Position numbers and translations under genes: made by a program. DNA of 52,099 nt from a bacterium (GTDB lineage Bacteria > Bacteroidota > Ignavibacteria > Kapaibacteriales > Kapaibacteriaceae). Below the pieces are notes generated by a model that had not been told where the DNA came from, made no database searches, and saw nothing but the letters and a program-made list of their open reading frames with translations. Each line of letters opens with the position of its first letter. Position 1 is the stretch's first letter. This document shows, one piece after another, positions 3,056 through 36,984 of this stretch. Location of the stretch: positions 1 through 52,099 of the forward strand of contig JANJTN010000146.1 of the NCBI GenBank assembly GCA_024711065.1, given 5' to 3'.

Positions 3056-3505
3056 TCATTCTGCAGACATGCGCACACCGGTGGCCACCATCATGGCAAT
3101 GCGCTGATCACCCTCGATCGCCGCGATCGCTTCGTCACTCAGACCGATGCTTCCGCCGATGGCCTGGGCTACGTCCTGCTCCACGACGGATTCATTCACC
3201 ACACCGCGCACCACCACGGGTCCACTGAGTGTGGTGGGCACGTAGAAGGCCTCATCCTTGAACGTGACGCGCAGATACGACGTTCCGTCGGTGATCGACA
3301 TCCAGCACCCCTCGTCCTGACACACCTGATGGATCTGGCCCGACACGGTTATGGTGCGGCCGAACTGCTTGGGATCCAGCGCCTCGCTCACAGAGAGCAC
3401 GGGGCCATCCTTGGGAGGGGGCTCGCCAACATGGTCCTGTTTGGCGCACGAAGCCGCCAGCACGACCACCGCGATCACAACCATCACACGTCCGAAACCC
3501 AGCAT
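3056..3505 (-). CDS. DUF4920-like lipoprotein
   Basis: The ORF track gives 3056..3586. I prefer the ATG at 3505, which yields a lipoprotein signal MLGFGRVMVVIAVVVLAASC. Cys-containing core QVCQDEGCWM resembles DUF4920 proteins. Confidence 0.55.
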   Translation of the reverse strand: MLGFGRVMVVIAVVVLAASCAKQDHVGEPPPKDGPVLSVSEALDPKQFGRTITVSGQIHQVCQDEGCWMSITDGTSYLRVTFKDEAFYVPTTLSGPVVVRGVVNESVVEQDVAQAIGGSIGLSDEAIAAIEGDQRIAMMVATGVRMSAE

Positions 3506-3602
3506 GTTGTACCCTTCCTGATGCAACCGATCACAACGCCGCAGTCCAGCGCGCGCAACTCGCCGGTACGAGGCCAATCGGTTCAAATTACCGTTGTCGA
3601 CG

Positions 3603-3637
3603 AAAAAACCCTGACCGATGTGGATCGATCAGGGTTT
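3603..3637 (-). terminator. Rho-independent terminator downstream of tRNA-Thr
   Basis: On the minus strand, stem CCCTGATCGAT / ATCGGTCAGGG (11 bp, one mismatch), loop CCAC, followed by a T6 run (plus-strand A6 at 3603-3608). Confidence 0.7.
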
Positions 3638-3645
3638 CGCGTGTG

Positions 3646-3718
3646 AGCCAACTGCCGGACTTGAACCGGCGACCTGTTCATTACGAATGAACTGCTCTAC
3701 CAGCTGAGCTAAGTTGGC
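3646..3718 (-). tRNA. tRNA-Thr (anticodon CGT)
   Basis: Reverse complement folds as a cloverleaf. Acceptor GCCAACT/AGTTGGC, D-arm GCTC-AGCTGGTA-GAGC, anticodon stem GTTCA/TGAAC with loop TTCGTAA, T-arm GCCGG-TTCAAGT-CCGGC. Confidence 0.9.
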
Positions 3719-3755
3719 GCGATTGTTCGAGAACAGAGCTTCAAAGATACGGAAC

Positions 3756-4439
3756 CTACGATCGTATCCGCAAGAGGGTCTGGACATACTTGTCCACGTA
3801 TTCCTCCATCTGCCGACGTCGATACTGCATGATGAAGCGTGGGTGCTCGAGATACTCCACGGTGGTGTAGTCCAGATGCGGACGCAGCCGTTGTTCCATC
3901 ACTTCCCGGAGCCGCCCCGTTCCCAGGACCACACACCGGTCCGCCTGCAGACCAGCCCCCTGCTGCAGCTTGATCCAGGACAGGATCTGCGGCTGGATGC
4001 GGTTCAGGAAGTCCGCGTCATCATAAAAATTCACGTTGCGGCCTTCACGGATATAGCCCAATGGGCTCAGGGCCGACAGGTAGAAATCTCGAAAAAAGGC
4101 GGCCGGACCACCGTAGGCGTCGACCACCTTCCAGATGAACTCCGCAGAGATCTCTCGACGCCCCGTGATGGACGTGTCAAAGCCCAATACCTCGGTAAGG
4201 ACGAATGGATCGGTGAACGACAGTCCCGTCACACCCGCGCCGAACCGTCCGGGATTGATCCCCCAGATCGCCGTGCGGGGATGGTCGCCGGCATAGGCCA
4301 TTCGAACAAAGCGGTCCACTACCTTGCGTACCTCGGGGTCGCGGTAGGGATCCAACACCTCAAATCCGGGGGCAAGGGGCTCGTCGATCGTCAACGACGT
4401 CAGAAACGTCGCAATGCGATCCGCGAACTCAGAGGCCAT
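3756..4439 (-). CDS. uracil-DNA glycosylase superfamily protein (DUF4918/MUG-like)
   Basis: 227 aa. GINPGRFGAG resembles UDG motif A (GINPG of family 2). A C-terminal EHPRF resembles motif B. Confidence 0.6.
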   Translation of the reverse strand: MASEFADRIATFLTSLTIDEPLAPGFEVLDPYRDPEVRKVVDRFVRMAYAGDHPRTAIWGINPGRFGAGVTGLSFTDPFVLTEVLGFDTSITGRREISAEFIWKVVDAYGGPAAFFRDFYLSALSPLGYIREGRNVNFYDDADFLNRIQPQILSWIKLQQGAGLQADRCVVLGTGRLREVMEQRLRPHLDYTTVEYLEHPRFIMQYRRRQMEEYVDKYVQTLLRIRS

Positions 4440-13078: not shown

Positions 13079-15162
13079 ACCGCATCATTGGCGACGAGCA
13101 CTTCGGCTCTGTGTCCCGACAGCGCATCTTCCGCTACGCGGTGATGCTGCTGGCACTGATCTTCATCCTCCGACTAGGATGGCTGCAGATCGTACAGGGC
13201 GGCGCGTATCGATTGAAGGCCGAAGCCCAGGCCATCAAACAGATCAAGATCGAACCATTCCGCGGGATGATGTTCGACCGGCATGGACGCGCCATCGTGC
13301 AGAACGTGGGTGGCTTCTCCATTATCGTGACGCCCTACGAATTCACGGAGGTCTCTCGCCAGCGCCTGTCCAAACTGCTGGGCGTGTCGGATTCCGCGAT
13401 CGCCGTAGAAGTTGCGAAAGCGGCACGGCTGAACAAGTTCAGTCCCTTCAAGATCTCCTTTGGTCGCGACGTACCGAACGAGATCCTGGCTCTGATCGAA
13501 GAACAGCGGGAATGGTTGCCGGGCGTGGATGTGATCACCGATCCAAAGCGGTACTACGCCTTTGACGGCAACGCCGCCCACCTGCTTGGCTATACGCGCG
13601 AGGTGAGCGAAGACGAGCTGCAACGCTTCGGCGATGCGTATGATCCTGGTGATATCACGGGTAAGGTAGGACTGGAACGCTCGTATGAGTCCTACATCCG
13701 CGGACAGAAAGGTTTTGAGTTTGTCGCCGTGAATAATCGCGGTCAACGCGTTGCCAGCTTCAACGATCGCAAGAGCGACATCCAGGCACGGGAGGGCTTC
13801 GACCTCTACCTTGGCATGGATGCCGACGTGCAGGTATTGGCCGAGAAAGCCCTACAGGGCAAGCGAGGAGCCGTAGTGGCCCTTGATCCGCGCAACGGCG
13901 AGATCATCGCCTTTGCTTCCATGCCCGACTTCGATCTCCGAGAACTGACCGGACGGACCACGCGATCCTACTTTAACCAACTCTTCCGGGATCCTGAGAA
14001 GCCCCTTCTCAATCGGGGCTCCATTTCGCAGTATCCACCAGGATCAACCTGGAAGATGCTGGTTGCGATCGCCTGTCTGGAAGAGGGATTGATCACACCC
14101 CAGACACGACTCTCGTGTTCCGGTGCCTATTACTACGGCAACCGCTCCATGGCCTGCCACGGGGCACACGGAGCGATCACTGTGGAGCGGGCCATTCAAG
14201 CCTCCTGCAACGTGTTCTTTGCCCAATGCGGCATGAAACTGGGACCCGACCTGATGGAGAAATGGGGCGAACGCTTCGGATTTGGGGCCCGCACCTTGGC
14301 CGATATCTCCGAGGAGAAGTTGGGGCTTGTACCGAGCACGGCCTACATGGACAAGGTCTATGGCGAGCGCGGCTGGAGCAAGTACGCCGCAGCGAACTGG
14401 GGTATCGGTCAGGGCGAATTGTTGGTCACTCCTCTGCAGATGGCTCGGTATACGGCTGCTCTGGCCAATGGCGGAACGTTGTTCCAACCTCATGCCGTGC
14501 GGGCGATCCAGAACAAGGCCTTGGGTCGCAAACAGTGGGTCGCGTACGACTCCACGGACCTGCAGATCTCGGCACAGACGATGGAGATCGTGCGCCAGGG
14601 CATGTACCTGGTGGTGAACCAACCGGGCGGTACGGCCGGCAACGTGAAGCTGCCCACCACGGTGGTGTGCGGCAAGACCGGTACGGCCCAGAACCCCCAC
14701 GGCAAAGACCACTCCTGGTTCGTAGCCTTTGCGCCAATGGAGAACCCCACGATCGCCGTCTGCGCGATGGTCGAAAATGCCGGCTTTGGTTCCACCGTTG
14801 CCGCTCCGATCGTACGCGACGTGATCAACCTGTATTTGAACCGGGTCTGGCCCGACGGCATGAAGCCAACAGGATCGGATAGTTTGCCGACACCTGCGGA
14901 CAGTGCGGTACTGGTCAAGGACGAGATCCCGATCCAGGGTCCGTTCCTTGTAGAACGCCCGGGACGTCGGACGCAACCGGCAGTAGCAGTGGCTTCGTCC
15001 ACTCCGACCGCCGCCGTTGCCGCTGCTCCCAGCGGGGCCGCTCGCCCGGCAGCAACACCATCCGATAGCCGCCCCGCAGCACCTGCCTCCGGTGCTGCTG
15101 TCACACCCAAGCCTGCAGCAGGCACCCGCGAAGATCCGGTAACGCCGGGTCCGCGACGGTGA
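13075..15162 (+). CDS. mrdA: penicillin-binding protein 2 (class B transpeptidase)
   Basis: 695 aa. N-terminal TM, then SxxK (GSTWK), SxN (SCN) and KTG(T) (GKTGTA) motifs. Pro/Ala-rich C-terminal tail. Confidence 0.9.
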   Translation: MNRIIGDEHFGSVSRQRIFRYAVMLLALIFILRLGWLQIVQGGAYRLKAEAQAIKQIKIEPFRGMMFDRHGRAIVQNVGGFSIIVTPYEFTEVSRQRLSKLLGVSDSAIAVEVAKAARLNKFSPFKISFGRDVPNEILALIEEQREWLPGVDVITDPKRYYAFDGNAAHLLGYTREVSEDELQRFGDAYDPGDITGKVGLERSYESYIRGQKGFEFVAVNNRGQRVASFNDRKSDIQAREGFDLYLGMDADVQVLAEKALQGKRGAVVALDPRNGEIIAFASMPDFDLRELTGRTTRSYFNQLFRDPEKPLLNRGSISQYPPGSTWKMLVAIACLEEGLITPQTRLSCSGAYYYGNRSMACHGAHGAITVERAIQASCNVFFAQCGMKLGPDLMEKWGERFGFGARTLADISEEKLGLVPSTAYMDKVYGERGWSKYAAANWGIGQGELLVTPLQMARYTAALANGGTLFQPHAVRAIQNKALGRKQWVAYDSTDLQISAQTMEIVRQGMYLVVNQPGGTAGNVKLPTTVVCGKTGTAQNPHGKDHSWFVAFAPMENPTIAVCAMVENAGFGSTVAAPIVRDVINLYLNRVWPDGMKPTGSDSLPTPADSAVLVKDEIPIQGPFLVERPGRRTQPAVAVASSTPTAAVAAAPSGAARPAATPSDSRPAAPASGAAVTPKPAAGTREDPVTPGPRR

Positions 15163-16235
15163 TCGCTCGGCTCACACTCCTGTTGGTCGCAGGGCTGGTA
15201 TTGGGGTGCACCGACAAGCCCCCTGCCACCTCGATCACATTCTGGCACTTCTGGTCGGAACCGGCACAAGAGCAGGCGCTGCTCGAGCTGTTACACACCT
15301 ACGAGGCCACACATCCTGGTATCACCGTCGAGCCAGTGCCATTGAGTTGGGCCGACGGCAAGCAGAAACTGCAATTGGCCTTCAATGCCGGTACCCAGCC
15401 AGACATCGTCCATCTGGGTATGGACTGGTTCGCGGAATTCGATGCCTCCGGCGTGTTCGCCCCGCTCGAACACCCCAACACTATCGCCGATCGTGCGGCA
15501 TTGTGGGTGCTGAACGCCCGTGCGCTGGTGCATTGGACCGGAGCTCCGGCACGGCATCGATGGGGACTGGCCCGATCGGATGCGCACAACATCCTGAAGC
15601 GTTCGCTGCCCCTGCTCTGGCAGGCGGGAGCAACCGAGTTCTACACCAGAACGCCGATCGCGGCCGACATGAACGACCAGCTCGTTCAGGCCTTGTGGGC
15701 TCTTCGGGACACGATTCGGCAAGGGGCTCTCCTGGAACCCTCCAGATCGCTGGACGAGCGCTTTCTCCGAGGGGAGATCGAATACCTCTACACGGGCGCC
15801 TGGATCATCGACATGGCCAATGCTCGCAACGTCACATCGTTCGAAGTCCTTCCTACACCATCGATCCTGAACGGCGACGTCCTCTGTATCAGCAAGGGTA
15901 GCCGCTTGTCCAGGCAGGCCGCCGACCTGATCGCCTGGCTTACGGAGTATCGGCAGTCCGCACAGTTCTGCCACCAGGTGTCCGACGCAGGATTCCCGGC
16001 CTCGGACCTGGTTTTCAGCGACGCAGAGTTCCAATTGGACAACATCCAGCGCGGGTTCCTGCTCACAGCCAAGGAGTCACGCCCCCTTCCCGCCTCACCG
16101 GTCCTTCTTCGCATCGAGCCGATCATCGAAGACCTCATCGAGCGGTGTTATGCTGCCGCGTCCAGAAGAGAAATGGCGGAGTTGGTCGAATCTGCCAGAG
16201 TGCAAGTTCAATCGATCGAGCAATCGCAAGACTGA
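15159..16235 (+). CDS. extracellular solute-binding lipoprotein (ABC SBP family 1-like)
   Basis: GTG start overlaps the mrdA stop (GTGA). Lipobox LVLGC. ITFWHFW...GITVEPVPLSWADGKQKLQLAFNAGTQPDIVHLG is typical of SBP_bac_1. No permease or ATPase genes adjacent. Confidence 0.7.
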   Translation: MIARLTLLLVAGLVLGCTDKPPATSITFWHFWSEPAQEQALLELLHTYEATHPGITVEPVPLSWADGKQKLQLAFNAGTQPDIVHLGMDWFAEFDASGVFAPLEHPNTIADRAALWVLNARALVHWTGAPARHRWGLARSDAHNILKRSLPLLWQAGATEFYTRTPIAADMNDQLVQALWALRDTIRQGALLEPSRSLDERFLRGEIEYLYTGAWIIDMANARNVTSFEVLPTPSILNGDVLCISKGSRLSRQAADLIAWLTEYRQSAQFCHQVSDAGFPASDLVFSDAEFQLDNIQRGFLLTAKESRPLPASPVLLRIEPIIEDLIERCYAAASRREMAELVESARVQVQSIEQSQD

Positions 16236-16250
16236 ACAACGTTGGAGCAT

Positions 16251-16272
16251 TTGAACGCTGGAGGGCTTGAGG
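16251..16272. repeat. left arm of a 22-bp imperfect inverted repeat flanking the low-GC island
   Basis: The reverse complement CCTCAAGCCCTCCAGCGTTCAA matches GCTCAAGCCCTCGAGCGCTCAA at 20051-20072 in 19 of 22 positions (11-mer core GAGGGCTTGAG). Confidence 0.7.
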
Positions 16273-16394
16273 GATCAACTCCTACTACATCGTTCCTAAC
16301 CGCTATCGACAAGTGTGGGTAGAGCCCGACGTAGTTGTATATGCCTCAAATAGCAGAATAGATCTCAGTCCTGCTTTTTACTTGCGTATTTCTA

Positions 16395-16409
16395 CCCCCC
16401 CCCCCCCCC
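16395..16409. repeat. C15 homopolymer tract
   Basis: Counted directly: 15 consecutive C, 82 nt upstream of the ATG at 16491. Confidence 0.95.
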
Positions 16410-16490
16410 TTACATTACGGGTGCGGCTTTTGAATGACTGCAGCATCTGAATGTCGCCTCATTCATCACCCACATATTAAGGAGGGCATT

Positions 16491-17105
16491 ATGCGATGTC
16501 CAACCTATACCACACGAGGGATCTTTGTTGCGCTTGTTTTCACGTTCCTGGCTGTAGCCGCTTCGGTGCAGCCACTGACAGCGAGCGACTGCGAGTGTAC
16601 GACCGTGACAGACACCATCGTAGCCACGATATGCATCGGCGGAGCGGACTACGACATGGAAATCTACCTATGTGACGTAGGGACACCGGGAACGGGTGGA
16701 TCATGCAACTCGTCTTATGTTCAGAATCGGTTCTCTGTGCTCCATAAGATCTGTTTCCTTGATCCGCGACCGGCTGGGCTGACCAATGTGCAGATCATCA
16801 GCGCGATACTCTGTGACATCAAGAACTCTGCATGCGACCCCACGAACCAATGGGGCATCAACGTACCCAATGGCAGTGTCTACTGCTGGGAGATCCGAAC
16901 TCCCAAGTGCACGACGACGGACATGAATGGCTGCATCGTACCCTGTGGCACTGACATTCCGTGTTGCAGAATGGAGCTGCGCTGGAAACGAGAATCTGGC
17001 AACTGTTACTGGGATCCTCTGCCGGTGTATACATGCGAAGACCCTGGTACCTGCACGCAGGGCTGTGAACAGGGATGTCCGACGGTTACGGGCTGCTGCG
17101 AGTAA
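16491..17105 (+). CDS. secreted cysteine-rich protein of unknown function
   Basis: AGGAGG at 16480-16485, 5 nt before the ATG. Signal peptide MRCPTYTTRGIFVALVFTFLAVAAS. 22 Cys in 204 aa, ending GCCE. No motif I recognise. Confidence 0.7.
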   Translation: MRCPTYTTRGIFVALVFTFLAVAASVQPLTASDCECTTVTDTIVATICIGGADYDMEIYLCDVGTPGTGGSCNSSYVQNRFSVLHKICFLDPRPAGLTNVQIISAILCDIKNSACDPTNQWGINVPNGSVYCWEIRTPKCTTTDMNGCIVPCGTDIPCCRMELRWKRESGNCYWDPLPVYTCEDPGTCTQGCEQGCPTVTGCCE

Positions 17106-17506
17106 TGAATACGTGCTTTCAAAACTGTGCATGGCTGGGGCTGCGGACACTCGCAGCTCCAGCGTGCACGGTGTTGTGCCTGGCATCTGTCGCGCTGGTG
17201 CTACTGCTCTCCGTTGACATGCAAGCTGTCCCGCCGTCTTTTACTGTGTCGGCGAAGCATACAGTCATCAGGGACAACATTGATATTGAGGTCTACAACG
17301 CAGCACTGTCCTACGGCAAGATTCGCTCCGCCAAAGTATTTTCTGTTGACGGTTCCGTCATCGCAGACTTTCTGGCTGAGATCAACCCATCGTTGTTTGG
17401 GCTCCAGTCAATCATTATTGACATGCAATCGTCGGCGAGAGGTGTGTACCTTGTGGTGGTCGAGACAGAGCGTGAACAGCTGGTTGTAAAGGTGATAAAG
17501 GAGTAG
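17105..17506 (+). CDS. small protein: hydrophobic N-terminus + T9SS C-terminal sorting domain only
   Basis: The ATG overlaps the upstream stop (TAATG). The C-terminal ~85 aa (...IDIEVYNAA...AKVFSVDGSVIADF...MQSSARGVYLVVVETEREQLVVKVIKE) looks like a type A Por sorting domain. The start codon is uncertain (17075, 17105 or later). Confidence 0.55.
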   Translation: MNTCFQNCAWLGLRTLAAPACTVLCLASVALVLLLSVDMQAVPPSFTVSAKHTVIRDNIDIEVYNAALSYGKIRSAKVFSVDGSVIADFLAEINPSLFGLQSIIIDMQSSARGVYLVVVETEREQLVVKVIKE

Positions 17507-17512
17507 GCGACA

Positions 17513-20008
17513 ATGTCTTGTCATGATCAGTCATATGCCACTACTGCATTTACGTTGTTCGTGTTGCTCGTTGCACCGTTGGTGCAGACAAGGGTCACAG
17601 GGCAGGAGCTTCTGTACTCACAACGCACCACGAGTTCGTCGACTGTCGGTTTGATCAATGACGTTGTCGAGTATCAGGATACCAACCTGTTGATACACGT
17701 GAAGCACAACCACCTTTTTGTTGTCAATCTCGTTGATGGTGTTGCCCGCCGTTTCGAGCAGTTGGATGCTTCCTTCTGGCCATATGGATATTTTGGTTTT
17801 GCTGGGGATCACCGACTGTTCTTTACTCGTACTGAGGGTATGAACCGGATGTATCTGATCGGTCCTGATGGGAGTGTACAAGGTGACCAGCTGGATGACA
17901 GCGTTCAAACCGCGAACCATTCGTATGATCACACACCTGATGGAGTCGTGCGCCTTGGGCGTGGTTCAAAGGAATACACCAGTGTGGACTATGGTGTGAC
18001 GTGGAACATTCATGATCGCCAAGGTTCTGTCCCTTTAGGCGTGTCAAGCCAGGGGAGTGGAGCCGCGCTGTGCGTTATCGAGAGTGGTCGTCAGTTCTAC
18101 GAGTGTCTGCTGCCCGATCGAGGGGACGCTTGGGTTCAGAGCCCGATGACACGAACGGATCCGTATGGCGGCGAACTGATGCGGATCGTCCACCTTGGGT
18201 CTGATTCACTCGCATGGCTGACAACGAGGGTTATCGAGGGGGACAGCTCACAACTACGGCTGTACGTGGGTGCCCTTGGTGATACGGTTGCTCAACGTGT
18301 CGACTCCGCTCTTCTGAATGGAACGATTGTACGTCTAGACCCCTTGCAGATCTTCGAGACGTCAGATAGGTGTGTGTTTTATCTTGACAAGATGGGGTGG
18401 ACAGCAACGTACTGTGATGGATCGTGGACTCTCCACGAGTGGCGTCCCAGAGAGGCATTCCTGGACGGTAGAGGAGACCACAATCGGTATTCGTCTCAGA
18501 AGCGTGGTTGGGCTTACCTGCGAATCAAGGAAGAATCTCCCATGGTGATGTATCGGATCGACCTGAGGCATCCCGTGTCCGTTGACTCGATCATCCTGCC
18601 CGTCGGCGTAAAGGATCACTTAGTGCCGGCACCAGCTCAACTGCAGGGGCTTGGTTACCTGAATTCGGGGCTGGAGAACCAGCAGGAACTCATTTACTGG
18701 CCGGACAGAAGTGTATATGCGTTTGGGTCATTCATTCGAGAGATCGACATCTTCCCACTGAAGCGAATGCTATTCACATGGGAGGACGGCGAACAGCTGT
18801 GTGTCGTCACCGACTTGGAGCAGCTCGTCCGGCCCGACGCGTACGGAAGAGGCCGCGTCGTACGTGGACTTCTTCTCAGCGATGAGACTAGACAGCCAAA
18901 CGTCGGGTATCATGGGCAGCACCCAGACGGTGATCTTCGGGAACGGGGTGCATCCGTACCAGCCGTTCTTGCGCAAGGCAGGATCTTTAGTGGTCCGGTT
19001 GTGCGAGTGACCAGTAGTGACGGTACGCGAGCGGACACCTTGTTGAATGCGCCAACGTCGTTTGGGGCAGTACTCAGAGACGGACGGTTTGCGACCGGGT
19101 GGAAGGGCGTGTTGCGCCTGCATAGGCAACACACCATCGACACGTTCGACATCTCATCTGTGAATTCGTCTGCTGACTCTATGGGCTACCCTTCCCATGT
19201 AGTACAGTGCACTGCCGGTACACTGGTTGCTTCAGTCCTTGGAACCCATCGCATCGATCCAGCAACTAACGTTACTCGGGCATTCCGGTGGGGAGGCATT
19301 CTGCGCTCCACCGATGATGGAGCAACGTGGGTGTCAACCCCTCTTCCCACTGACGATGCAACGTATGTGATGAGCCTTGCCGAAACACGGGATGGGACGC
19401 TGCTAGCCACGACGATGCGTATGGTTGAGGATACCGTTGTTGGAGAGCGTACTCAGTCATCCTACCAAGCAAATCGTGTCTGCATTTTGCGTTCCTCAGA
19501 TTGTGGCCAAACGTGGAACGCAGTCCATCAGCCCGTGTTTTCAGGGTCATGGCAGATCACTTCTGGTAACATCGTCCAGCATCCAGATGGCACGTTGTAC
19601 GCAGCATTGATTTCCGGCATTTACTACAGTACAAATGACGGACAGTCCTGGGTTCTTGACGAACGTCTGCCACTCACCACCAATCCGGCGAGCATTGCTC
19701 TCTCCAGTTCAGGCGCGATCCTTGTGGCGGCTTCCGATGGAGTGTATCGGCTGGATCACGTTACGAGCGTGAACGATGCAACTGCGTTGCCAGCACAACA
19801 ACCAATGCGGATCCTGTCCGTCGATCAGCTGTCTCGATACCTCGAACAACGTCAGATAAATGACTTCAGCCTGAGCGATGCTCACGGTAGGACAATTTCG
19901 ATGCAGCGAAGGAATTTCCCAGGCATGATGGCACATTCAAGTATTCCCGGCTTGTACGTGCTGTTCGCCGAAGGACAAAGGGAAATTATCTTGCTCGTCG
20001 ATGACTAA
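17513..20008 (+). CDS. large secreted Asp-box (BNR) repeat protein with probable T9SS sorting domain
   Basis: 831 aa. Signal-like N-terminus. Asp boxes SVDYGVTW, STDDGATW, SSDCGQTW and STNDGQSW. C-terminus ...IPGLYVLFAEGQREIILLVDD resembles a T9SS sorting domain. Confidence 0.7.
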   Translation: MSCHDQSYATTAFTLFVLLVAPLVQTRVTGQELLYSQRTTSSSTVGLINDVVEYQDTNLLIHVKHNHLFVVNLVDGVARRFEQLDASFWPYGYFGFAGDHRLFFTRTEGMNRMYLIGPDGSVQGDQLDDSVQTANHSYDHTPDGVVRLGRGSKEYTSVDYGVTWNIHDRQGSVPLGVSSQGSGAALCVIESGRQFYECLLPDRGDAWVQSPMTRTDPYGGELMRIVHLGSDSLAWLTTRVIEGDSSQLRLYVGALGDTVAQRVDSALLNGTIVRLDPLQIFETSDRCVFYLDKMGWTATYCDGSWTLHEWRPREAFLDGRGDHNRYSSQKRGWAYLRIKEESPMVMYRIDLRHPVSVDSIILPVGVKDHLVPAPAQLQGLGYLNSGLENQQELIYWPDRSVYAFGSFIREIDIFPLKRMLFTWEDGEQLCVVTDLEQLVRPDAYGRGRVVRGLLLSDETRQPNVGYHGQHPDGDLRERGASVPAVLAQGRIFSGPVVRVTSSDGTRADTLLNAPTSFGAVLRDGRFATGWKGVLRLHRQHTIDTFDISSVNSSADSMGYPSHVVQCTAGTLVASVLGTHRIDPATNVTRAFRWGGILRSTDDGATWVSTPLPTDDATYVMSLAETRDGTLLATTMRMVEDTVVGERTQSSYQANRVCILRSSDCGQTWNAVHQPVFSGSWQITSGNIVQHPDGTLYAALISGIYYSTNDGQSWVLDERLPLTTNPASIALSSSGAILVAASDGVYRLDHVTSVNDATALPAQQPMRILSVDQLSRYLEQRQINDFSLSDAHGRTISMQRRNFPGMMAHSSIPGLYVLFAEGQREIILLVDD

Positions 20009-20009
20009 C

Positions 20010-20080
20010 GCCCTCAAACGCTAAAGCCTTCTAGCCCTTAAGCCCTTAGCGCTCAAGCCCTCGAGCGCTCAAGGATCTCC
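20010..20080. repeat. degenerate 7-8-nt tandem repeats (T[CT][AG]AGC[CG]C-like), containing the right arm of the island inverted repeat
   Basis: ...CTAGCCC TTAAGCCC TTAGCGC TCAAGCCC TCGAGCGC TCAAGG. Extends into the last codons (ERSRA) of the minus-strand SRPBCC gene. Confidence 0.7.
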
Positions 20081-20508
20081 TTCGTCTTCGCCTGCCGGAA
20101 GGCGAACATCGTGCGGATCTGGCGGTTGATCACCAGTATGTCTGCTAGGCGGCCCAGAAGACCCAACGGTGGAGTGTACTCTACGATGTCGGTGAGTTCC
20201 GTTCCACGGTCCACCGTGCGGAACTCCCGGATCTGTTTCCACGTCGCAAACGGACCGGAGATCTGCTCGTCGATCATCAGGTGTGGTGGTTCATAGACCG
20301 TGATCCTTACGTGCCAGCGCATCGTAAAGAGTCCGAACTGGCGGACCTTCAGGAGTACTTCGTAGCCAGGACCCGGCGTCCCCATGGCTTCGATCTGCAC
20401 CCTAATGTTGGGTGGTGTGATCCGGAGCAGGTTGGCGGTGTCGTCGTGAAAATGGAAGACCTGTTCGATCGGAGCTTCGATCCGGACCGTGCGTTCGTAA
20501 CGCGTCAT
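20053..20508 (-). CDS. SRPBCC (cyclase/dehydrase, START-like) family protein
   Basis: 151 aa from the ATG at 20508 ([23 protein letters not shown]...). ATGA overlap with the NUDIX stop. The track's longer version runs through the NUDIX gene. Confidence 0.7.
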   Translation of the reverse strand: MTRYERTVRIEAPIEQVFHFHDDTANLLRITPPNIRVQIEAMGTPGPGYEVLLKVRQFGLFTMRWHVRITVYEPPHLMIDEQISGPFATWKQIREFRTVDRGTELTDIVEYTPPLGLLGRLADILVINRQIRTMFAFRQAKTKEILERSRA

Positions 20509-21080
20509 GGAAACAACTCGGGGTTGAAGAACATCCACTTGCGAGCCATCCGCAGCATGGATTCTTCGGTGGTATAGGGGTGGATCTGCGAGACATTCAC
20601 CCAGGCAAGGTCGTTGGACTCGGAGCTCACCACATGATCCATGTGCAGGGCGCGGCACACATAACGCACGTCGAAGTGCAGGTGTTCCGGATCGGTTCCC
20701 CGAGCCGGGATCGGGTGAATATCGATGTCGAAGATCTCGGCAGTGAGTGGTACGACCTCTGTGATCCCCGACTCCTCCCGCGCTTCGCTCAGCGCTACCT
20801 CCAGCACATTGCCGTTGCCGTCGGCATGGCCTCCAACATGCAGCCACTTGTCAAGTTTGCGGTGGTGATTCAGCAATACCTGGCGGCCGTCGGGTCCCAC
20901 CAGCCATGCTGAACCCGTCACGTGACCTTCCACCGTAAAACGCTCAAAGCAGTCCGGCTCGCGTCCGATGAACTCCATCATGCGGTCGATGGTTGTTAGC
21001 TCTTGTGGCCATAGGCGTCTATACCGGCCAAGGGCCGACAGTAAGAGTTGCCGCCATTCGTCCCGTTCCATCACATCCAC
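20505..21080 (-). CDS. NUDIX hydrolase
   Basis: 191 aa. NUDIX-box-like [24 protein letters not shown]. Confidence 0.8.
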
Positions 21081-26189: not shown

Positions 26190-26849
26190 TTAGTTCGATG
26201 TTGGGAGAGGGCACTTTAGCCCCCTGATGAAGAGCTTGACCGTGTCGTTGAGGATCTTGCCGGGGTCGACCTTGGCCCACTCCGGCGGGACCATGCCGTT
26301 CCGTAGGATCACCATTGTCCCCTTCAACGCGAACAGCAGCTGGAGCACCACATACTGTACCGGATGCTCGAGTTGGTAGAGCCCCTTATCAACGCCTTCC
26401 TGGATCAAGCCGATCATGATCTGCATCATCCGATCGTTCAGTTGCGTGAACTGCGTTACGGATTCGCTGGGTCCACAATCCTGTGGGCACATCAGGTGCC
26501 GCATATCCATCTGCGTCATCACCTGGTACAGGAAGGCATTCTCGGAGGAGTAGGTATGAAAGGTAGAGACAGCCTTGACCAGCTTTTTGTCCGGCGCGTC
26601 CTTCGACGTGGTCACCTTTTCCAAACGTTCGATCAGGCCCACGAGGTCTTCGGCGATCAGCGCCATCAGCAGCTCGTCTCGATTCTTGTAGTACAGGTAC
26701 AGCGTACCCTTGGCCAGCTCCGCCTCTTCGGCGATCTTGTCCATGGAAGCATGCTGGATCCCGTACTTCTCGAACGCTTGCCGCGCCGACGCCAGGATGT
26801 CCTGCCGACGCTGCTCGCGCTCGCGTTCTTTGCGTTCCCGTACACCCAT
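26190..26849 (-). CDS. TetR/AcrR family transcriptional regulator
   Basis: N-terminal HTH ASMDKIAEEAELAKGTLYLYYKNRDEL. Sits between the tolC-like and MFP genes. Confidence 0.85.
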   Translation of the reverse strand: MGVRERKEREREQRRQDILASARQAFEKYGIQHASMDKIAEEAELAKGTLYLYYKNRDELLMALIAEDLVGLIERLEKVTTSKDAPDKKLVKAVSTFHTYSSENAFLYQVMTQMDMRHLMCPQDCGPSESVTQFTQLNDRMMQIMIGLIQEGVDKGLYQLEHPVQYVVLQLLFALKGTMVILRNGMVPPEWAKVDPGKILNDTVKLFIRGLKCPLPTSN

Positions 26850-31360: not shown

Positions 31361-32856
31361 TAGGCACCCCGCCCCGTCATCACCACGCCCACCGTTCGCA
31401 GCAGGATGTAGATGTCGAGGAAGAGCGACCAGTTGCGCATGTAGTACAGGTCTACATGGGTCCGCACGTCGAATTCGGCATCGTTGCGAACGGTCACCTG
31501 CCACAGGCCGGTCAGACCGGGCTTGGTGCTGTGATACATGGACAGGTAGGCACGGCGCCCTTCAAAGTCGAAGGCGGCCATTTCGCCCGCCAGGAACGGA
31601 CGGGAGCCCACCAGGGTCATCTCGCCCTTGAGGACGTTCCAGAGCTGAGGGAGTTCATCCAGCGAATACTTCCGCAACCAGTGGCCGATTCCGGTGATCC
31701 GTGGGTCGGACTTGAGCTTGTGGAACCGAGCCCATTCATCGGCCGATGTGGGGTCGGCCTCCAACAGGTCCTGCAACACCTCATCGGCATTGGTGACCAT
31801 GGTGCGGAACTTGAGCACGCTGAACATGCGGCCCTTTTCGCCGACGCGCTTCTGACGGTACAGCACCGGCCCGCGGGACGTAAGCTTGATCGCCACGGCG
31901 ATGGCCACCATCAAGGGTAGCGACAGCAGGAAGAGCGGCACCGTGACGATCACGTCGAACAAGCGCTTCTTGAACCGCAGCTCGGGATGGCGCAGCCGTT
32001 GTTCGATCTCGGCGCTCAGCAGCACATCGCTGTTGGCATTAGAGATCCAGACCACGGACGGGTGGACGTGATCGCCCACAAAGGTCACGTGCTGCAGGTT
32101 GGTGCAGTGTTCTTCGAGGATCTCGTTCAGAGTTTCGGAGTTGGTGTGCGGCATGGCCACGATGCCGTGCGTCAGGCCATACCGTTTGGTCAGCGGACCC
32201 ACGTGGTCCAACCCACCGATCACCGGAACACCCTCGTAGTACCCATACTCGGCTGTGTTGGCATCGGGCTCGATGATCACCAGCGGACGCAGGCCGATCT
32301 GCACATTGCGGCGCAATGTGTCCACGATCCGCGTGGCCATAGAGTGCTTCCCGACGATCACCGTAGGAATGCCGAACCAGCCGTGCCGGCTCAGGAACCG
32401 CCGGGTGGCCATGCGGCTGATCGCCAGCAGCGGTACCGAGAAGAACCACGAGATCAGCAGGATCGAGCGCGCGTATGGCAGCACGCCGCGCGTAAAGAAG
32501 CTCACGGCGATCACGGCGGCAAACACGCCGGTAACGGTATAGAACGTAGACCGGAGCTCGGCGATCGCACAGGAACCGTATCCGGGATAGATCCCCCGCC
32601 AGGCCGAAGCGAAGGCATTGCTGAACACGATCGCTGCACCAACGATCAGGTAGGATTCCACCGGAACGGGGCTAGGGCTGTTGAGGGTGCGCAGGAAGAT
32701 CACACCGGTCAGCACCGCTACCAGGGTCAGCGCATCGCTTACCACAAGGGCCATGGAGGCTTTGATGCGGCTGGAGCGGATGGAAGCATGCGTAGAACGA
32801 TGGGGCGTAGGCCGAACAAGAGCCTCGCCGAGTTCCTGCAACGTCGGTTGGTGCAT
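31357..32856 (-). CDS. polyprenyl-phosphate sugar phosphotransferase (WbaP/exopolysaccharide initiating enzyme type)
   Basis: N-terminal TM helices plus the bacterial sugar-transferase domain: RLFDVIVTVPLFLLSLP...GPVLYRQKRVG...LKFRTM...SDPRIT...SLDELPQLWNVLKGEMTLVGSRP. The start is either the ATG at 32856 or the GTG at 32901. Confidence 0.85.
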   Translation of the reverse strand: MHQPTLQELGEALVRPTPHRSTHASIRSSRIKASMALVVSDALTLVAVLTGVIFLRTLNSPSPVPVESYLIVGAAIVFSNAFASAWRGIYPGYGSCAIAELRSTFYTVTGVFAAVIAVSFFTRGVLPYARSILLISWFFSVPLLAISRMATRRFLSRHGWFGIPTVIVGKHSMATRIVDTLRRNVQIGLRPLVIIEPDANTAEYGYYEGVPVIGGLDHVGPLTKRYGLTHGIVAMPHTNSETLNEILEEHCTNLQHVTFVGDHVHPSVVWISNANSDVLLSAEIEQRLRHPELRFKKRLFDVIVTVPLFLLSLPLMVAIAVAIKLTSRGPVLYRQKRVGEKGRMFSVLKFRTMVTNADEVLQDLLEADPTSADEWARFHKLKSDPRITGIGHWLRKYSLDELPQLWNVLKGEMTLVGSRPFLAGEMAAFDFEGRRAYLSMYHSTKPGLTGLWQVTVRNDAEFDVRTHVDLYYMRNWSLFLDIYILLRTVGVVMTGRGAY

Positions 32857-32934
32857 GCTACCCCTTGGAAATTCCACCCTTTTGCCTACCCCATCCCCCA
32901 CATACCAGCGCTGAAAATACGCATTACGAAGAGA

Positions 32935-34926
32935 TTACGATGGGTCGGCCTCGGTATCCGACGTGTCCTCGGTAAGAAAGAATTGCGGGAACCGCTCCTC
33001 GTTGATGGGCTCCAGGAAACGGCTTGGGCGTCCCAGCACGTCGGTATGCTCCCACTCCAGCATCACGGCGGGATATGTGAGCACCAGGCGCTGCTTGGCG
33101 CGTGTGCAGGCTACATACAGCAGCCGCCGTTCTTCTTCCAGCGAGGCTTCACTGTCGGCGCTGCGGGCCGAAGGCAGGCGCCCCTCGTTCACCCAGATCA
33201 GGAAGACCGTGTTCCACTCCAGCCCCTTGGCCGAGTGAATGGTCGAAAGGGTCATGAACTCATCCTCCCGGTCATCCTCCTCCAGGTCGTCCAGCGTCTC
33301 CTGTGGTGGATCCAGGGCAATGTCGGCCAGGAACGCTTCCACGGTGGGATATCGCGAACCGATCGCCATCACCGTCTCAACGTCCCGCCAGCGCTTGGCA
33401 TGGTCGTCGTAAGCTTTCTCGAATCCCGGACGATACCCCTCGGCCAGGATGCGCAGGCGTTCTTGCGGATCTGCGATGGTGCGGGCGCGTACAAGAAGGT
33501 CTCGAAGGGGGCTGGCCTTGATGGGAAACGCCACGTCGGCCGACAGCGGATCGGCTACATCGGCAAAGCCGTCGATGATCTGCTGGGCCGTTTTCTGCCC
33601 CACACCGGGCTGCAGCAGCAGCACCCGGTACCACGAGATCACGTCGCGGGGATTGGCCGTGATCCTGAGCAGTGCCAGCAGGTCCTTCACATGCGCGGCC
33701 TCGGTGAACTTCATCCCGCCATACTTCACGAAAGGGATGTTCGACCGGCGCAAGGCGATCTCCAGATCAAAGGACAAAAAGCCGCTGCGGAACAACACGG
33801 CGATCTCCGACAACGGTACACCGGACTCGCGAAGCTCCAGGATCTGCTGCACCACAAACTCGCTCTGTTGCCGCTCATTGGTGCACGACACCAGCATCGG
33901 AGGTTCGCCGGTGGTCACATCGGAGAACAACTCTTTTTCGAACATCTGCGGAGCATCGCGCAGGATGTCGTTGCACATATCCAGGATAGGCTGCGTGCTG
34001 CGATAGTTATGCTCCAGACGGATCACGTGGCAGTCGTCGAAGGAATCCGGAAAGGCATGGATGTTGCGGACGTCGGCTCCCCGAAACGAATAGATACTCT
34101 GAGCATCATCGCCAACAGCCATCACGTTGCCACGCCGCCCGGCCAAGCCCATGATGATGGCATGCTGCAGCGCATTGGTGTCCTGGTACTCATCCACCAT
34201 CACGAAACGATAGCGATCGCGCAGGGTGGGTCCGACCTCGGGGTGCCGCGTCATGGACAGCAAGTAGAGCAGCAGATCGTCGTAATCGAACAGTCCGTGC
34301 TGGCGTTTGTACTGGTGATAGGCCTGGATCACCTGTCGAATGCCTTCCAGATCGGCCAGGAACTGGGGATAGAGCTGCGCCACCACATCGTCGATCGGTG
34401 TGATCGTGTTCACCGCCGTACTGGCCATGGCCACCAAGGTCTGCTTCTTGGGAAAGCGCCGACGAGCCCCCTTCACGTCGAAACGGCCTCGGACCAGGTT
34501 CATCACGTCCTCGGCATCGGCTTGATCAAGCACGGACATCGGGCGCGTGGACTCGCTGCCGGCCTGCTCTACACTGCCAAATCGCTGCAGCACGCCAAAG
34601 GCAAAGGAATGGAACGTGCCTCCGGCCACGCGTTCACAACGTCCATCCAGCAAGCCCCCTGCCCGACGCAGCATTTCGCGAGCGGCCTTGCGGGTGAACG
34701 TCAGCAACAAGATCGATGCCGGGTCCACACCGTCCTCTACCAACCGCGCTACGCGAAACGTGAGCGTGCGGGTCTTTCCGGTGCCGGCACCGGCAAGTAC
34801 CAAAGCCGGGCCGTTGGTATGCATCACGGCCTCGAGCTGGGCCGGATTGAGTTCCTGGTCGTAGGCGATGCGATAGCTCTTCCCGGAAGGGACTGGGGTG
34901 GCCTTCTTGAGGACGAGTTTCTTCAT
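32935..34926 (-). CDS. UvrD/PcrA/Rep-family ATP-dependent DNA helicase
   Basis: 663 aa. LNPAQLEAV, Walker A LAGAGTGKTRTL, VDEYQDTN and the later helicase motifs. Confidence 0.9.
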   Translation of the reverse strand: MKKLVLKKATPVPSGKSYRIAYDQELNPAQLEAVMHTNGPALVLAGAGTGKTRTLTFRVARLVEDGVDPASILLLTFTRKAAREMLRRAGGLLDGRCERVAGGTFHSFAFGVLQRFGSVEQAGSESTRPMSVLDQADAEDVMNLVRGRFDVKGARRRFPKKQTLVAMASTAVNTITPIDDVVAQLYPQFLADLEGIRQVIQAYHQYKRQHGLFDYDDLLLYLLSMTRHPEVGPTLRDRYRFVMVDEYQDTNALQHAIIMGLAGRRGNVMAVGDDAQSIYSFRGADVRNIHAFPDSFDDCHVIRLEHNYRSTQPILDMCNDILRDAPQMFEKELFSDVTTGEPPMLVSCTNERQQSEFVVQQILELRESGVPLSEIAVLFRSGFLSFDLEIALRRSNIPFVKYGGMKFTEAAHVKDLLALLRITANPRDVISWYRVLLLQPGVGQKTAQQIIDGFADVADPLSADVAFPIKASPLRDLLVRARTIADPQERLRILAEGYRPGFEKAYDDHAKRWRDVETVMAIGSRYPTVEAFLADIALDPPQETLDDLEEDDREDEFMTLSTIHSAKGLEWNTVFLIWVNEGRLPSARSADSEASLEEERRLLYVACTRAKQRLVLTYPAVMLEWEHTDVLGRPSRFLEPINEERFPQFFLTEDTSDTEADPS

Positions 34927-34935
34927 CGATGTCGA

Positions 34936-36984
34936 TCAGAAAGCGGTCAGCCGCGTGATCTCGGCAGCGATGCTGTCTACCGTTGGGATCACCACATTCA
35001 TCATGCCTTTGTTGTACGGGATGGGCACATCAGGTGTGGCCATGCGCACCACGGGAGCATCCAACAGATCGAAGGCTTCCTGCCCGATGGTGGCAGCGAT
35101 CTCCGCGCCGAATCCGCAGGTGAGGCCATCCTCGTGCACGATCAGACAGCGATTGGTCTTGGCCAGGCTCTGCAGCACGGCGTCTTTATCCCACGGCACG
35201 ATCGTGCGCAGGTCGATGATCTCGGCATCGGCTCCGGCTTGTTCGACGGCTTCGCTGGCGCGGTGTACCATTTCGCCCCATGCCACAATGGTCAGGCGCG
35301 AGCCTTCGCGGTGGATGCGGGCTTTGCCGAACGGCACCACAAAGTCATCACCCGGATACTTCCCGCGGCCGGGTTTGGTGTCCTGAATGTCGCGGTGTTC
35401 CAGGAAGAACGTCGGGTCGTTCCCCCGCAGGGCTGTACGCAGCAGACCTACGGCGTCCTGGGCATTGGACGGGATGGCGATGCGCCAACCGATGGTGTGG
35501 GCAAAGATGGCTTCGCCGCTCACCGAGTGCCACGGATCTCCCGTCCGCTTGGAGTAACCGATCGGGATCCGCACCACCATGGGTGCAGCATAGTCGCCGT
35601 TGGTGCGCCAACGCACCGTGCCGGTATCATTGATCTGCTCGGTGGCCGGGTCGAGGTACTTGCGGAACTGGATCTCCGGAACGGGCATCAGACCGGCCAG
35701 GGCCATACCCTGCGCGCGGCCGATGATGCCTTCTTCGGACAGCGAGGTGTCGAACACCCGGTCGGCGCCGTGTTTGATCTGCAGGTCGACCGTGGCGCCG
35801 TGGACGCCACCCTTAACGCCAACGTCTTCGCCAAAGACCACCACGCGCGGATTGATCTCGAGTTCGCGGTCCAGCGTGCGTTTGACAGCTTCGATCAGAT
35901 TGATGCGGGGACCATCTTCCTTCAGCTCGCCGCTGGCTGAAGGGGGCTCTGCACCATCGCCCATCAGGCCGCCATGTTTGGGTGCTTCGCCGTCAAAGAA
36001 GACATGGGCAAACGCGCTGTAGGGATCCGGCTCGGCTTGAGCTACGGCGGCTTCGGCAGCGGCACGAACCTCGGCATCGACCTCGGCCACCAGTGCGTCC
36101 CACCCGTCGGCGTCCAGATAGCCCTTCTTGAGGAAGTAGGCCTGGAGTTTATCGATCGGATCGTTTTCGCGGTCGAACTGCCGCTGAGCGTCGGACTTGT
36201 ACGACTGGTTGTCGGCACCGGAGTGACCGCAGATGCGGGGCACGTGGGCATGGATCAGCGCCGGCGTTCCGGCGTCCCGCACGTGCTCGATGGTCTTGTC
36301 GATCATGCGCGCCGCTTCGTCGGGATTGGTGCCATCGAATTCCACGATGCGCAGGCTGGCGAACGAGGCCAGGTTGGCCGAGATGTTGCCGCCCGGCGTC
36401 TGGAAGGTGCCCGGCACGCTGATGCCAAGCTGATTGTCCTCGATGAAGAAGACCATCGGCAGTTTCTGCGTGGTGGCGATGTTCAACGCCGCCCAGAACC
36501 CGTTGGTCGCTGTAGAGCCATCACCACCGAGGGCAACCGCCACAGCCCCTTTCCAGTCGCTTTCGTTCATCACGGTAGACCGGTACCGAATGGTTTGGGC
36601 CCAGCCCACGGCCGGAGTATACTGCGCTCCCACATCGCCGGAGGCTGGCAGCACCGTTACGCCTCTACGATTCGGCAAATGGTGCACCACGCCGATGTCG
36701 CGTCCACCGTTGCGGCTGCCCACACGCGCAAGGGGTCCGGCAAAGGCTTCTTCGTACGTCATGCCGGCACCGATCACAAAGGGCCGCGACCGGTAATACA
36801 CCGTGGCCGCGTCGCGTCCCTGGCGCAACACCTGCGACAGAATGGCCTGGATCAGCTCGTGACCCTTGGCCGAGAATTGATAGGTGACCTTTCCGGAGGG
36901 GGCTAGTTCCTGCTCCTCGATCTCGTCGATCCGGCGCGAGGCGAGCATGGTACGGGCAACGTCGAACCAGTCTGATTTCTTCAT
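34936..36984 (-). CDS. 2-oxoacid dehydrogenase E1 component, fused alpha+beta subunits (TPP-dependent)
   Basis: ATG at 36984 (MKKSDWFDVARTMLASRRIDE). Alpha-type TPP motif GDGSTATNGFWAALNIA, followed by a beta/transketolase-like half (VVFGEDVG...GRAQGMALAGLMPVPEIQF). Confidence 0.85.
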   Translation of the reverse strand: MKKSDWFDVARTMLASRRIDEIEEQELAPSGKVTYQFSAKGHELIQAILSQVLRQGRDAATVYYRSRPFVIGAGMTYEEAFAGPLARVGSRNGGRDIGVVHHLPNRRGVTVLPASGDVGAQYTPAVGWAQTIRYRSTVMNESDWKGAVAVALGGDGSTATNGFWAALNIATTQKLPMVFFIEDNQLGISVPGTFQTPGGNISANLASFASLRIVEFDGTNPDEAARMIDKTIEHVRDAGTPALIHAHVPRICGHSGADNQSYKSDAQRQFDRENDPIDKLQAYFLKKGYLDADGWDALVAEVDAEVRAAAEAAVAQAEPDPYSAFAHVFFDGEAPKHGGLMGDGAEPPSASGELKEDGPRINLIEAVKRTLDRELEINPRVVVFGEDVGVKGGVHGATVDLQIKHGADRVFDTSLSEEGIIGRAQGMALAGLMPVPEIQFRKYLDPATEQINDTGTVRWRTNGDYAAPMVVRIPIGYSKRTGDPWHSVSGEAIFAHTIGWRIAIPSNAQDAVGLLRTALRGNDPTFFLEHRDIQDTKPGRGKYPGDDFVVPFGKARIHREGSRLTIVAWGEMVHRASEAVEQAGADAEIIDLRTIVPWDKDAVLQSLAKTNRCLIVHEDGLTCGFGAEIAATIGQEAFDLLDAPVVRMATPDVPIPYNKGMMNVVIPTVDSIAAEITRLTAF

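Follow-up and report, generated by a model that had tools for sequence, protein, structure and literature searches.

A 3.8-kb region of low G+C content was found to be an insertion relative to related genomes. It comprises positions 16236-20052 of a 52,099-nt stretch of DNA from a member of the Kapaibacteriaceae (contig JANJTN010000146.1 of assembly GCA_024711065.1; the whole stretch is called the window in the following). The region carries three tightly linked genes for putatively secreted proteins, which are designated G1, G2 and G3. It is tentatively read as a horizontally acquired, self-contained three-gene operon that would encode a surface module relying on a type IX secretion system (T9SS), and the confidence assigned to this reading as a whole is somewhat below even. 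An initial annotation, made from the sequence without database searches, had proposed horizontally acquired T9SS cargo, and this proposal was supported by the composition of the region, by the empty site in related genomes and by the lack of matches to characterised families. The roles at the cell surface that had been suggested there, i.e., adhesion, antagonism or polymer binding, are conceivable. T9SS cargo as such is known; new are the cysteine-rich G1 family and the unusual free-standing sorting domain of G2.

The three genes are encoded on the forward strand. A spacer of 255 nt without an open reading frame (ORF; 16236-16490), presumably the promoter and leader of the trio, precedes G1, and the ribosome-binding site AGGAGG (16480-16485) is located 5 nt ahead of the G1 start codon at 16491. 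G1 (16491-17105) encodes a protein of 204 amino acids. Its stop codon TAA (17103-17105) and the start codon of G2 (17105-17107) have one base in common. G2 (17105-17506) encodes 133 amino acids, or 143 amino acids if the alternative start codon at 17075 is used. A gap of 6 nt separates the stop codon of G2 from the ATG of G3 at 17513, which encodes 831 amino acids (17513-20008) and is followed by a 44-nt spacer with degenerate AGCCCT-type repeats (20009-20052). The ribosome-binding site, the tight linkage and the 6-nt gap had been part of the initial annotation, and all of them were verified.

The computed G+C content, third-position G+C content (GC3) and codon profile of the region deviated from the rest of the window. 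The G+C content was 53.7% compared to 60.0% in the remainder, and it was the lowest of all 3.8-kb sliding windows; those outside of the island had a mean of 60.1%, a standard deviation of 1.1 and a minimum of 58.1%. The GC3 values of G1, G2 and G3 were 0.63, 0.63 and 0.56, in comparison to 0.74 ± 0.06 for 30 other genes of the window, and the fit of their synonymous codons to the usage of the window yielded z values of -0.9, -2.5 and -2.9, respectively. The tetranucleotide distance, calculated over the whole window, also peaked at the island. The low-G+C island that had been described from hand counts is therefore real by G+C, GC3 and tetranucleotides, while its depth is about 6 percentage points and not the 15-20 points that counts of single lines had implied. 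Likewise, antisense ORFs are indeed shorter within the island (85-161 amino acids) than in the left flank (247-332 amino acids).

For the comparison of synteny, the neighbourhoods of PBP2 relatives were used, which included 10 kb on each side. In the PBP2 genome scan the nearest relatives were 64-75% identical and belonged to metagenome-assembled genomes labelled Candidatus Kapaibacterium, some of them obviously mislabelled; more distant matches were from metagenome-assembled genomes of Chlorobiota and Ignavibacteria. The genes around the island are housekeeping genes, i.e., those for UvrB, PBP2 (mrdA) and a protein similar to solute-binding proteins (SBP-like) on one side, and a Nudix-SRPBCC pair, MsrB and an RND efflux operon on the other side. 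In the three related loci L001, L002 and L004 the neighbourhood from UvrB (about 86% identical) to the RND pump was colinear with the window. In these loci the convergent SBP and SRPBCC genes share 9-21 nt at their tail ends, and the trio is absent from there. Moreover, tblastn searches with G1, G2 and G3 did not yield any match in 68 related loci. Because the flanking genes overlap in the relatives, which lack the trio at this site, the 3.8 kb represent an insertion at a place where two genes overlap with their 3′-ends. The C-termini of both flanking proteins diverge from those of the relatives at the junctions. In the case of the SRPBCC protein, which ends with LERSRA instead of the LLEAST or LLEST of the relatives, the divergence falls exactly at 20052-20072. 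The island is an insertion relative to the related genomes, and its composition is foreign. Two properties of classical genomic islands were thus observed: the composition deviates, and the corresponding site of the relatives is empty.

The island is bracketed exactly by an inverted repeat. The left arm of 21 nt (16251-16271, forward strand) is complementary at 19 of 21 positions to the right arm (20052-20072, reverse strand), which encodes the end of the SRPBCC gene, i.e., its stop codon and the six codons before it. No further copies were found in the 52-kb window, and a shuffling control produced a match in 0 of 100 shuffles. A comparable flanking inverted repeat was not found at four other loci that carry the trio. 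It is therefore regarded as a locus-specific scar or a split hairpin, and its interpretation as the terminal repeat of a mobile element was rejected; a genome-wide REP-like element was also rejected, on the basis of only two copies in 52 kb. Flanking direct repeats were not found at the borders. As had been noted initially, neither an integrase nor a transposase gene is present near the island, and a flanking tRNA gene, as at the borders of classical mobile elements, is lacking: the single tRNA gene of the window (3645-3718) is 12 kb away.

The distribution of the trio in other genomes was analysed by fetching carrier contigs from the homologues and by searching their six-frame ORFs with hidden Markov models (HMMs) of the G1, G2 and G3 families. 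The order G1-G2-G3 of the window was also found in L069, where the trio is located beside recA, recX and a GH57 gene, as well as in L076, L073 and L077. In L079 the order is G1-G3-G2, and the neighbours are ftsZ, ftsA and ftsQ. Partial versions were G3-G2 (L075 and L078), G1-G3 with no adjoining G2 (L072 and L081), and G3 alone (L074), which is located after three proteins with a C-terminal sorting domain (CTD). The trio was thus recurrent in at least eight unrelated metagenomic contigs. The neighbourhood was different in every trio carrier, and no other gene was recurrent beside the trio. The three families thus travel together across genomes in differing neighbourhoods, showing that they constitute a portable module. 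Fusions of G1 with G3 or with a CTD did not occur among 155 retrieved proteins. In L078 an IS3-family transposase gene (391-1625; HTH_Tnp_1 and rve) is located directly upstream of the G3 homologue, at the usual position of G1, and a PhD/PIN toxin-antitoxin pair is found 2 kb downstream. In L077 a gene for a DCC1-like thiol-disulfide oxidoreductase (3307-3780, reverse strand) follows immediately 3′ of the trio, which might be relevant for the cysteine-rich partner or might be a coincidence.

The contig L073 and the window share a colinear stretch of 1,436 nt, with a nucleotide identity of 87.5%. The comparison of these two copies resulted in dN/dS values of 0.20, 0.15 and 0.27 for G1, G2 and G3, respectively, indicating that all three are functional genes under purifying selection. 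The carriers have a G+C content of 48-53%, and the trio in these carriers has 44-54%, close to the composition of the hosts, which therefore fits a donor of lower G+C content for the copy in the window. The trio had zero matches in viral contigs, plasmids, PADLOC and PHROGs, and Rfam had zero matches in the window; readings as phage, plasmid, defence system or riboswitch were rejected on these grounds. Literature searches did not retrieve a publication on the trio or on a CTD that is conserved as a separate partner protein. The curated thresholds of characterised families were not reached by G1, G2 or G3.

For G3 an AlphaFold2 model was built from a 34-sequence alignment, which had a pLDDT (predicted local distance difference test) of 83.5 and a pTM of 0.82. 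The model comprises a signal helix (residues 7-24), about 60 beta-strands within residues 31-747 and a small domain at residues 765-831. The best whole-chain matches in a Foldseek search were the periplasmic double propellers of the Bacteroides hybrid sensors BT4663, BT4673 and BT3049 as well as GH74 xyloglucanases, with E values of about 1e-13 to 1e-11 and low TM-scores of 0.2-0.35; a fold search of BFVD retrieved only generic propellers. G3 had been described as an Asp-box protein, and four Asp-boxes were located at residues 157, 599, 661 and 706. The profile of the G3 family matched GH74 enzymes (E 1e-17 to 1e-14) and sialidases (6e-9) over the Asp-box stretches only, and it matched the CTD of RgpB (E 2e-3) with residues 745-825. 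The Pfam family Por_Secre_tail did not match G3 itself and matched 5 of 34 relatives (best E 1.4e-7). In total nine Pfam families matched the 34 relatives, among them BNR (32/34) and Sortilin-Vps10 (21/34; best 1e-12). In the model G3 thus consists of two tandem Asp-box beta-propellers and a small C-terminal domain that is homologous to T9SS sorting domains.

The G3 family, with proteins of about 800 amino acids, is rare. An exhaustive HMMER search of 1.8 billion representatives recovered about 40 clusters, i.e., about 40 full-length relatives with identities down to about 20%, 14 of which had E values below 1e-30. In contrast, a word-indexed homologue search retrieved only G3 itself, and a metagenome scan with an 8-sequence G3 alignment found one locus. 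In the 34 relatives the positions with at least 90% conservation were restricted to Asp-box residues and glycines, and the N-terminal propeller was poorly conserved. No acidic residue outside of the Asp-boxes reached 90% conservation among the relatives, and none was conserved in the N-terminal propeller. The sialidase FRIP motif ([FYWL]R[IV]P) was present in 1 of 34 family members and is absent from G3. Because only the polar residues of the Asp-boxes are invariant or nearly so, leaving G3 free of an enzyme signature, binding is favoured over catalysis. From the sequences a non-catalytic binding role of G3 is more likely, and the sialidase and GH74 labels of G3 and its relatives are not supported. 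One such label belongs to the relative P0007 on L074 (GCA_035299365.1, DATGWS010000324.1), which is named "sialidase family protein [Candidatus Didemnitutus sp.]" at NCBI. The three Por_Secre_tail proteins on this contig make both the sialidase label and the assignment of the bin to the Verrucomicrobia look doubtful.

G2 had been described as a sorting-domain protein without cargo, and it was found to be composed of a putative signal peptide and a weakly matching T9SS CTD-like domain and nothing else. The CTD-like region of about 90 amino acids (residues ~45-133) makes up the whole mature protein, with no passenger domain upstream of it; a passenger is present upstream of the CTD in G3. The matches of G2 were below the cutoffs for both Por_Secre_tail of Pfam (E 2e-3, 18.9 bits, cutoff 27) and TIGR04183 (E 3e-4, 20.7 bits, cutoff 23). 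Nevertheless, Por_Secre_tail matched all six of six G2 homologues (best E 1e-4), hhalign aligned G2 with the C-terminal domain of G3 (E 2e-4), and the G2 HMM matched the C-termini of five proteins of the G3 family. One G2 homologue is 88% identical. In L076 the G2 homologue (1115-1450) was called with a length of 111 amino acids, and its similarity is lost after about residue 100, which could be due to a frameshift or to decay. According to the present understanding, the passenger and the C-terminal sorting domain of a T9SS substrate are fused in one chain. A role of G2 as a cleaved signal makes little sense, because cleavage would not leave any cargo; from this analysis it is more likely that G2 is a retained docking or adaptor domain.

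G1 contains 22 cysteines, as had been counted, and one of them is within the putative signal peptide; the mature part of about 170 residues thus has 21. Homologues are P0003 (55% identity) and P0004 (41%) as well as ORFs in L076, L077, L079, L081 and L073. The homologue in L076 likewise begins with MRCP, as does G1 of the window when it starts from the ATG at 16491. Among the full-length homologues 19 of the mature cysteines were invariant, and the remaining two were displaced by one or two residues. At the C-terminus a Cys-Cys-x (CCE, CCS, CCP, CCQ or CCN) is conserved. The odd number of cysteines predicts one unpaired thiol or metal binding, and in combination with the C-terminal motif a vicinal disulfide is predicted as a third possibility. 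G1 did not match any entry of Pfam, NCBIfam, PADLOC, PHROG or the PDB sequences. The AlphaFold2 model, built from a three-sequence alignment, was moderately confident (pLDDT 72.9), and a Foldseek search with it did not find anything better than an E value of 0.25. A cystatin-like fold, indicated by matches to phytocystatins (probability 0.15-0.30) and fetuin-B, was not accepted, as these matches were non-significant, with E values of at least 0.25 and TM-scores of at most 0.43. Heme binding via CxxCH was also rejected, because inspection did not reveal the motif.

Two further genes of the window show that the host has a T9SS. One encodes a homologue of the T9SS shuttle protein PorV (50938-52008, reverse strand; Pfam PorV, E 1.3e-33, 117 bits versus a cutoff of 27), and the other encodes a CTD-bearing protein of 307 amino acids (37125-38048, forward strand; Por_Secre_tail, E 1.2e-5). 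When the N-termini of G1, G2 and G3 were inspected, all three had an n-region followed by a hydrophobic segment and a cleavage context of the A/G-Q type. The link of the trio to the T9SS is supported by homology that is weak but consistent.

The spacer upstream of G1 contains a conserved element. A motif AACACT(T/A)G(C)GTA was found about 100-120 nt before the start of G1 in L069, L076 and L079; the copy in the window is ACTTGCGTA (16380-16388, forward strand), and L072 contains a related sequence. Next to the motif a homopolymer follows, which is C15 in the window, T13 in L069, L070 and L071, and T6 in L076. The C15 tract, which was already listed in the initial annotation, was confirmed at 16395-16409 (forward strand), directly after the motif, and it is the sole long homopolymer of the window. 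With the homopolymer, where present, the sites extend over 16380-16409 in the window, 5019-5047 in L069, 440-470 in L076 and about 333-350 in L079. Heterogeneity of the tract length was not observed: three samples with the L069 allele all had T13. Neither a convincing sigma-70 promoter in the spacer nor a convincing intrinsic terminator in the downstream spacer was found, and further copies of the motif that would represent a regulon were not found in the window. It is possible that motif and homopolymer form a conserved regulatory site with a slippage-prone spacer, which could be phase-variable or spacing-sensitive. The sequence CTGCAG is present about 50-60 nt ahead of the start codon in four loci.

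The proposed surface module is envisaged as follows. The operon would have been acquired horizontally by a Kapaibacterium-like bacterium and have inserted where two convergent housekeeping genes overlap with their 3′-ends. Its expression might be set by the conserved upstream motif together with the slippage-prone homopolymer. All three proteins would cross the inner membrane via Sec, and G3 would be exported by the T9SS to the cell surface and be displayed there, where the double propeller might bind a ligand, either a glycan or a protein, instead of catalysing a reaction. G1 could be a dedicated partner or ligand of G3; most likely it contains disulfide bonds, in keeping with a location in the periplasm or outside of the cell. 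G2 might act as a retained docking or adaptor domain, comparable to the uncleaved CTD of PorZ, a protein of Porphyromonas gingivalis.

Several observations weigh against this interpretation. G1 carries neither a CTD of any kind nor another secretion tag, all CTD matches of the trio proteins of the window themselves are under the curated thresholds, and the C-terminal domain of G3 is modelled with two helices, unlike the canonical all-beta CTD. Among 34 G3 relatives, 28 retain D640 and 21 retain D555, so that a catalytic role is conceivable. The window does not contain any mobility gene. In addition, PBP2 of the relatives that were compared for synteny has an identity of only 64-75%, so that the insertion may be old, and only 10 kb on each side were covered in these relatives, so that the trio could be located elsewhere in their genomes.

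Alternative explanations differ in the part of the interpretation that they replace. Low G+C content could also result from weak codon selection and rare expression, if the operon were native and specific to the lineage and had been moved or lost in the relatives. The borders, with their lack of integrase, transposase, tRNA gene and direct repeats, would agree with such an origin, as would the 87.5%-identical copy in another sample, which is consistent with vertical descent within a genus. Furthermore, the trio is slightly below the local G+C content also elsewhere, e.g., G2 has 43-47% in hosts with 48-53%. However, the site is empty in at least two separate related lineages, in which the flanking genes physically overlap, the 53.7% G+C of the island is nearer to the other carriers than to its own host, the neighbourhood differs in every carrier, and one copy adjoins an IS3 element. 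A native origin is therefore considered to be unlikely. A similarly low probability is given to the view that G3 is a glycoside hydrolase, i.e., a GH74-type endoglucanase or a sialidase, and that the trio degrades polysaccharides or glycoconjugates. This view could draw on the profile matches to both enzyme groups, on the Foldseek alignment of the whole G3 model with GH74 tandem propellers (E ~1e-12), on a match to the NCBIfam glycosylhydrolase model F510_1955 (E 1e-8), and on the label of P0007. However, the matches are limited to the Asp-box stretches (residues ~580-720) and are far under the cutoffs (34.8 versus 175 bits, and 20.6 versus 31.4 bits for BNR_2), the TM-scores are only 0.25-0.35, the FRIP motif is absent, and conserved acidic residues are lacking as described above. 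In addition, neither SusC/SusD nor other genes for carbohydrate-active enzymes are recurrent beside the trio.

Two further explanations retain the secretion of the proteins and assign other roles to them. The trio might be an accessory attachment or export device of the T9SS, with G3 as a PorZ-like factor and G2 supplying the signal in trans to the tag-less G1. The domain plan of G3 and its nearest structures BT4663, BT4673 and BT3049 are those of PorZ, G2 is without own cargo and G1 without own tag, the two genes are translationally coupled by the overlap of stop and start codon, and the three families co-occur across distant homologues. However, the PorZ structure 5M11 was outside of the top 50 Foldseek matches of G3, and no PorZ Pfam model matched the 34 relatives. 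Unlike a core T9SS component, the family has a rare and patchy occurrence, with about 40 clusters, and is missing at the syntenic site of the relatives; moreover, L074 and L081 do not have G2 beside G3, and L074 also lacks G1. Such a device is thus regarded as rather improbable. In a more specific version G2 would bind G1 and carry or anchor it in trans, G3 would be the receptor or attachment factor at the surface, and slippage at the homopolymer would switch the unit on and off; the probability of this split-cargo version is low, at about one tenth. Still lower is the probability of an antagonism module, in which G1 would be an effector, e.g., a disulfide-rich toxin or a protease inhibitor, and G2 and G3 would serve for delivery or protection. 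G1 resembles many extracellular effectors and inhibitors in being a small secreted protein with many cysteines, and its faint fold likeness is only to cystatin-type inhibitors. However, these fold matches are non-significant and stem from a three-sequence model, toxin domains and matches in PADLOC or PHROGs are missing, and an immunity-like cytoplasmic partner is not present. Taken together, a horizontally acquired surface module with a binding function remains the favoured, tentative interpretation.

Several additional features of the window were observed. A Nudix hydrolase gene (20505-21080, reverse strand; Pfam E 9e-7) has a 4-nt overlap with the true start of the SRPBCC gene (ATG 20508). 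The SRPBCC ORF 20053-20847 carries a spurious N-terminal extension of 113 codons, which masks the Nudix gene in a naive ORF list. A long non-coding spacer between SRPBCC and MsrB was rejected, because the Nudix gene occupies this stretch. On the other side of the island the SBP-like gene (15159-16235) overlaps the stop codon of PBP2 (mrdA) by 4 nt, an arrangement that is kept in the relatives, and its Pfam SBP match is limited to residues 44-110; the position after mrdA is commonly occupied by rodA. A gene for a TetR-family regulator (26190-26849, reverse strand) is located between the genes for the outer-membrane factor and the membrane-fusion protein of the RND efflux operon. The region 31987-36906 is a further uncharacterised block, with an ORF of 1317 amino acids followed by one of 310 amino acids, both without a Pfam match even at E 0.01, and their GC3 of 0.64-0.66 is the next-lowest in the window after the island. 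The 255-nt spacer upstream of G1 had been named initially as the largest non-coding stretch of the window; other candidates for non-coding gaps, e.g., 31505-31986, depend on whether weak ORFs are genes.

In the trio a conserved, free-standing gene of the sorting type is combined with a cysteine-rich protein that lacks a tag and with a double propeller similar to PorZ in architecture. Provided that the three proteins cooperate, this would represent either a new accessory complex at the surface or a new use of the CTD fold, for docking or as a signal in trans, and G1 would found a protein family without known fold relatives. If the split-cargo version were true, it would be the first T9SS signal that is supplied on a separate polypeptide. 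The automatic annotation of G3 relatives as "sialidase family protein" is unsupported by the evidence presented here. The family is rare and limited to uncultured bacteria, and thus the immediate impact is limited.

The upstream region resembles that of known phase-variable genes. Phase-variable fim promoters of Bordetella contain a poly-C stretch, and a poly-C of 15 nt is also present upstream of the trio, here directly after a conserved motif. Unlike at the fim promoters, promoter elements could not be assigned, and the trio loci did not exhibit length heterogeneity. A second, purely analogous likeness is to sortilin/Vps10 proteins. In sortilin an Asp-box propeller is packed against cysteine-rich 10CC modules, and in the trio an Asp-box propeller protein (G3) is paired with a cysteine-rich protein (G1). 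However, sortilin has one ten-bladed propeller with the cysteine-rich part on the same chain, and G1 does not match any Pfam family, Sortilin_C included.

Among enzymes, the GH74 xyloglucanases, e.g., Xgh74A of Clostridium thermocellum (PDB 2CN3), share tandem Asp-box propellers with G3. GH74 enzymes have tandem seven-bladed propellers and a pair of catalytic Asp residues in the cleft, one of them from the N-terminal propeller and one from the other propeller. The likeness of G3 is limited to the Asp-box repeats, a conserved pair of catalytic acids is lacking, and G3 differs further by its additional T9SS CTD-like domain and by the lack of neighbours for carbohydrate utilisation. GH33 sialidases have a single six-bladed propeller, the FRIP motif and an arginine triad, in contrast to the double propeller of G3. 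With the type-A CTDs of the T9SS (Por_Secre_tail/TIGR04183; RgpB, 5AG8 and 5HFS) G2 and G3 share a D...G and a G-x-Y-x-V match, near the C-terminus of G2 and within the last ~70 residues of G3. Unlike these CTDs, the trio domains have sub-cutoff scores, G2 is without a passenger, and the domain of G3 is short with two predicted helices. The hybrid sensors of the BT4663 type add Y_Y_Y, a transmembrane helix and a kinase/regulator part to their propellers, while G3 ends after the CTD-like domain, and Pfam matches to Y_Y_Y, HisKA or HATPase were found neither in G3 nor in its 34 relatives. Furthermore, their propellers are built from Reg_prop-type repeats, those of G3 from BNR repeats/Asp-boxes.

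The closest parallel in architecture is PorZ of P. gingivalis (PDB 5M11), which is part of the T9SS attachment complex and consists of two tandem seven-bladed propellers and a CTD that is retained at the surface (PMC5121618). Its nearest solved architectures are the sensor domains of Bacteroides BT4663, BT4673 and BT3049 (PMC5121618), i.e., the same proteins that were the top Foldseek matches of G3. Differences are that sequence homology between the two proteins is not detectable, that none of the nine Pfam families of the G3 relatives is the PorZ model, and that PorZ is a core T9SS component without two dedicated partners, which is conserved in relatives with a T9SS and binds PorQ and anionic LPS, whereas G3 is rare, patchy and island-borne. 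Nevertheless, G3 is similar to PorZ in size (831 versus 776 amino acids), in its Sec signal and in the succession of two tandem propellers and a sorting-type domain, and PorZ, by retaining its CTD, provides a precedent for a CTD that is kept uncleaved.

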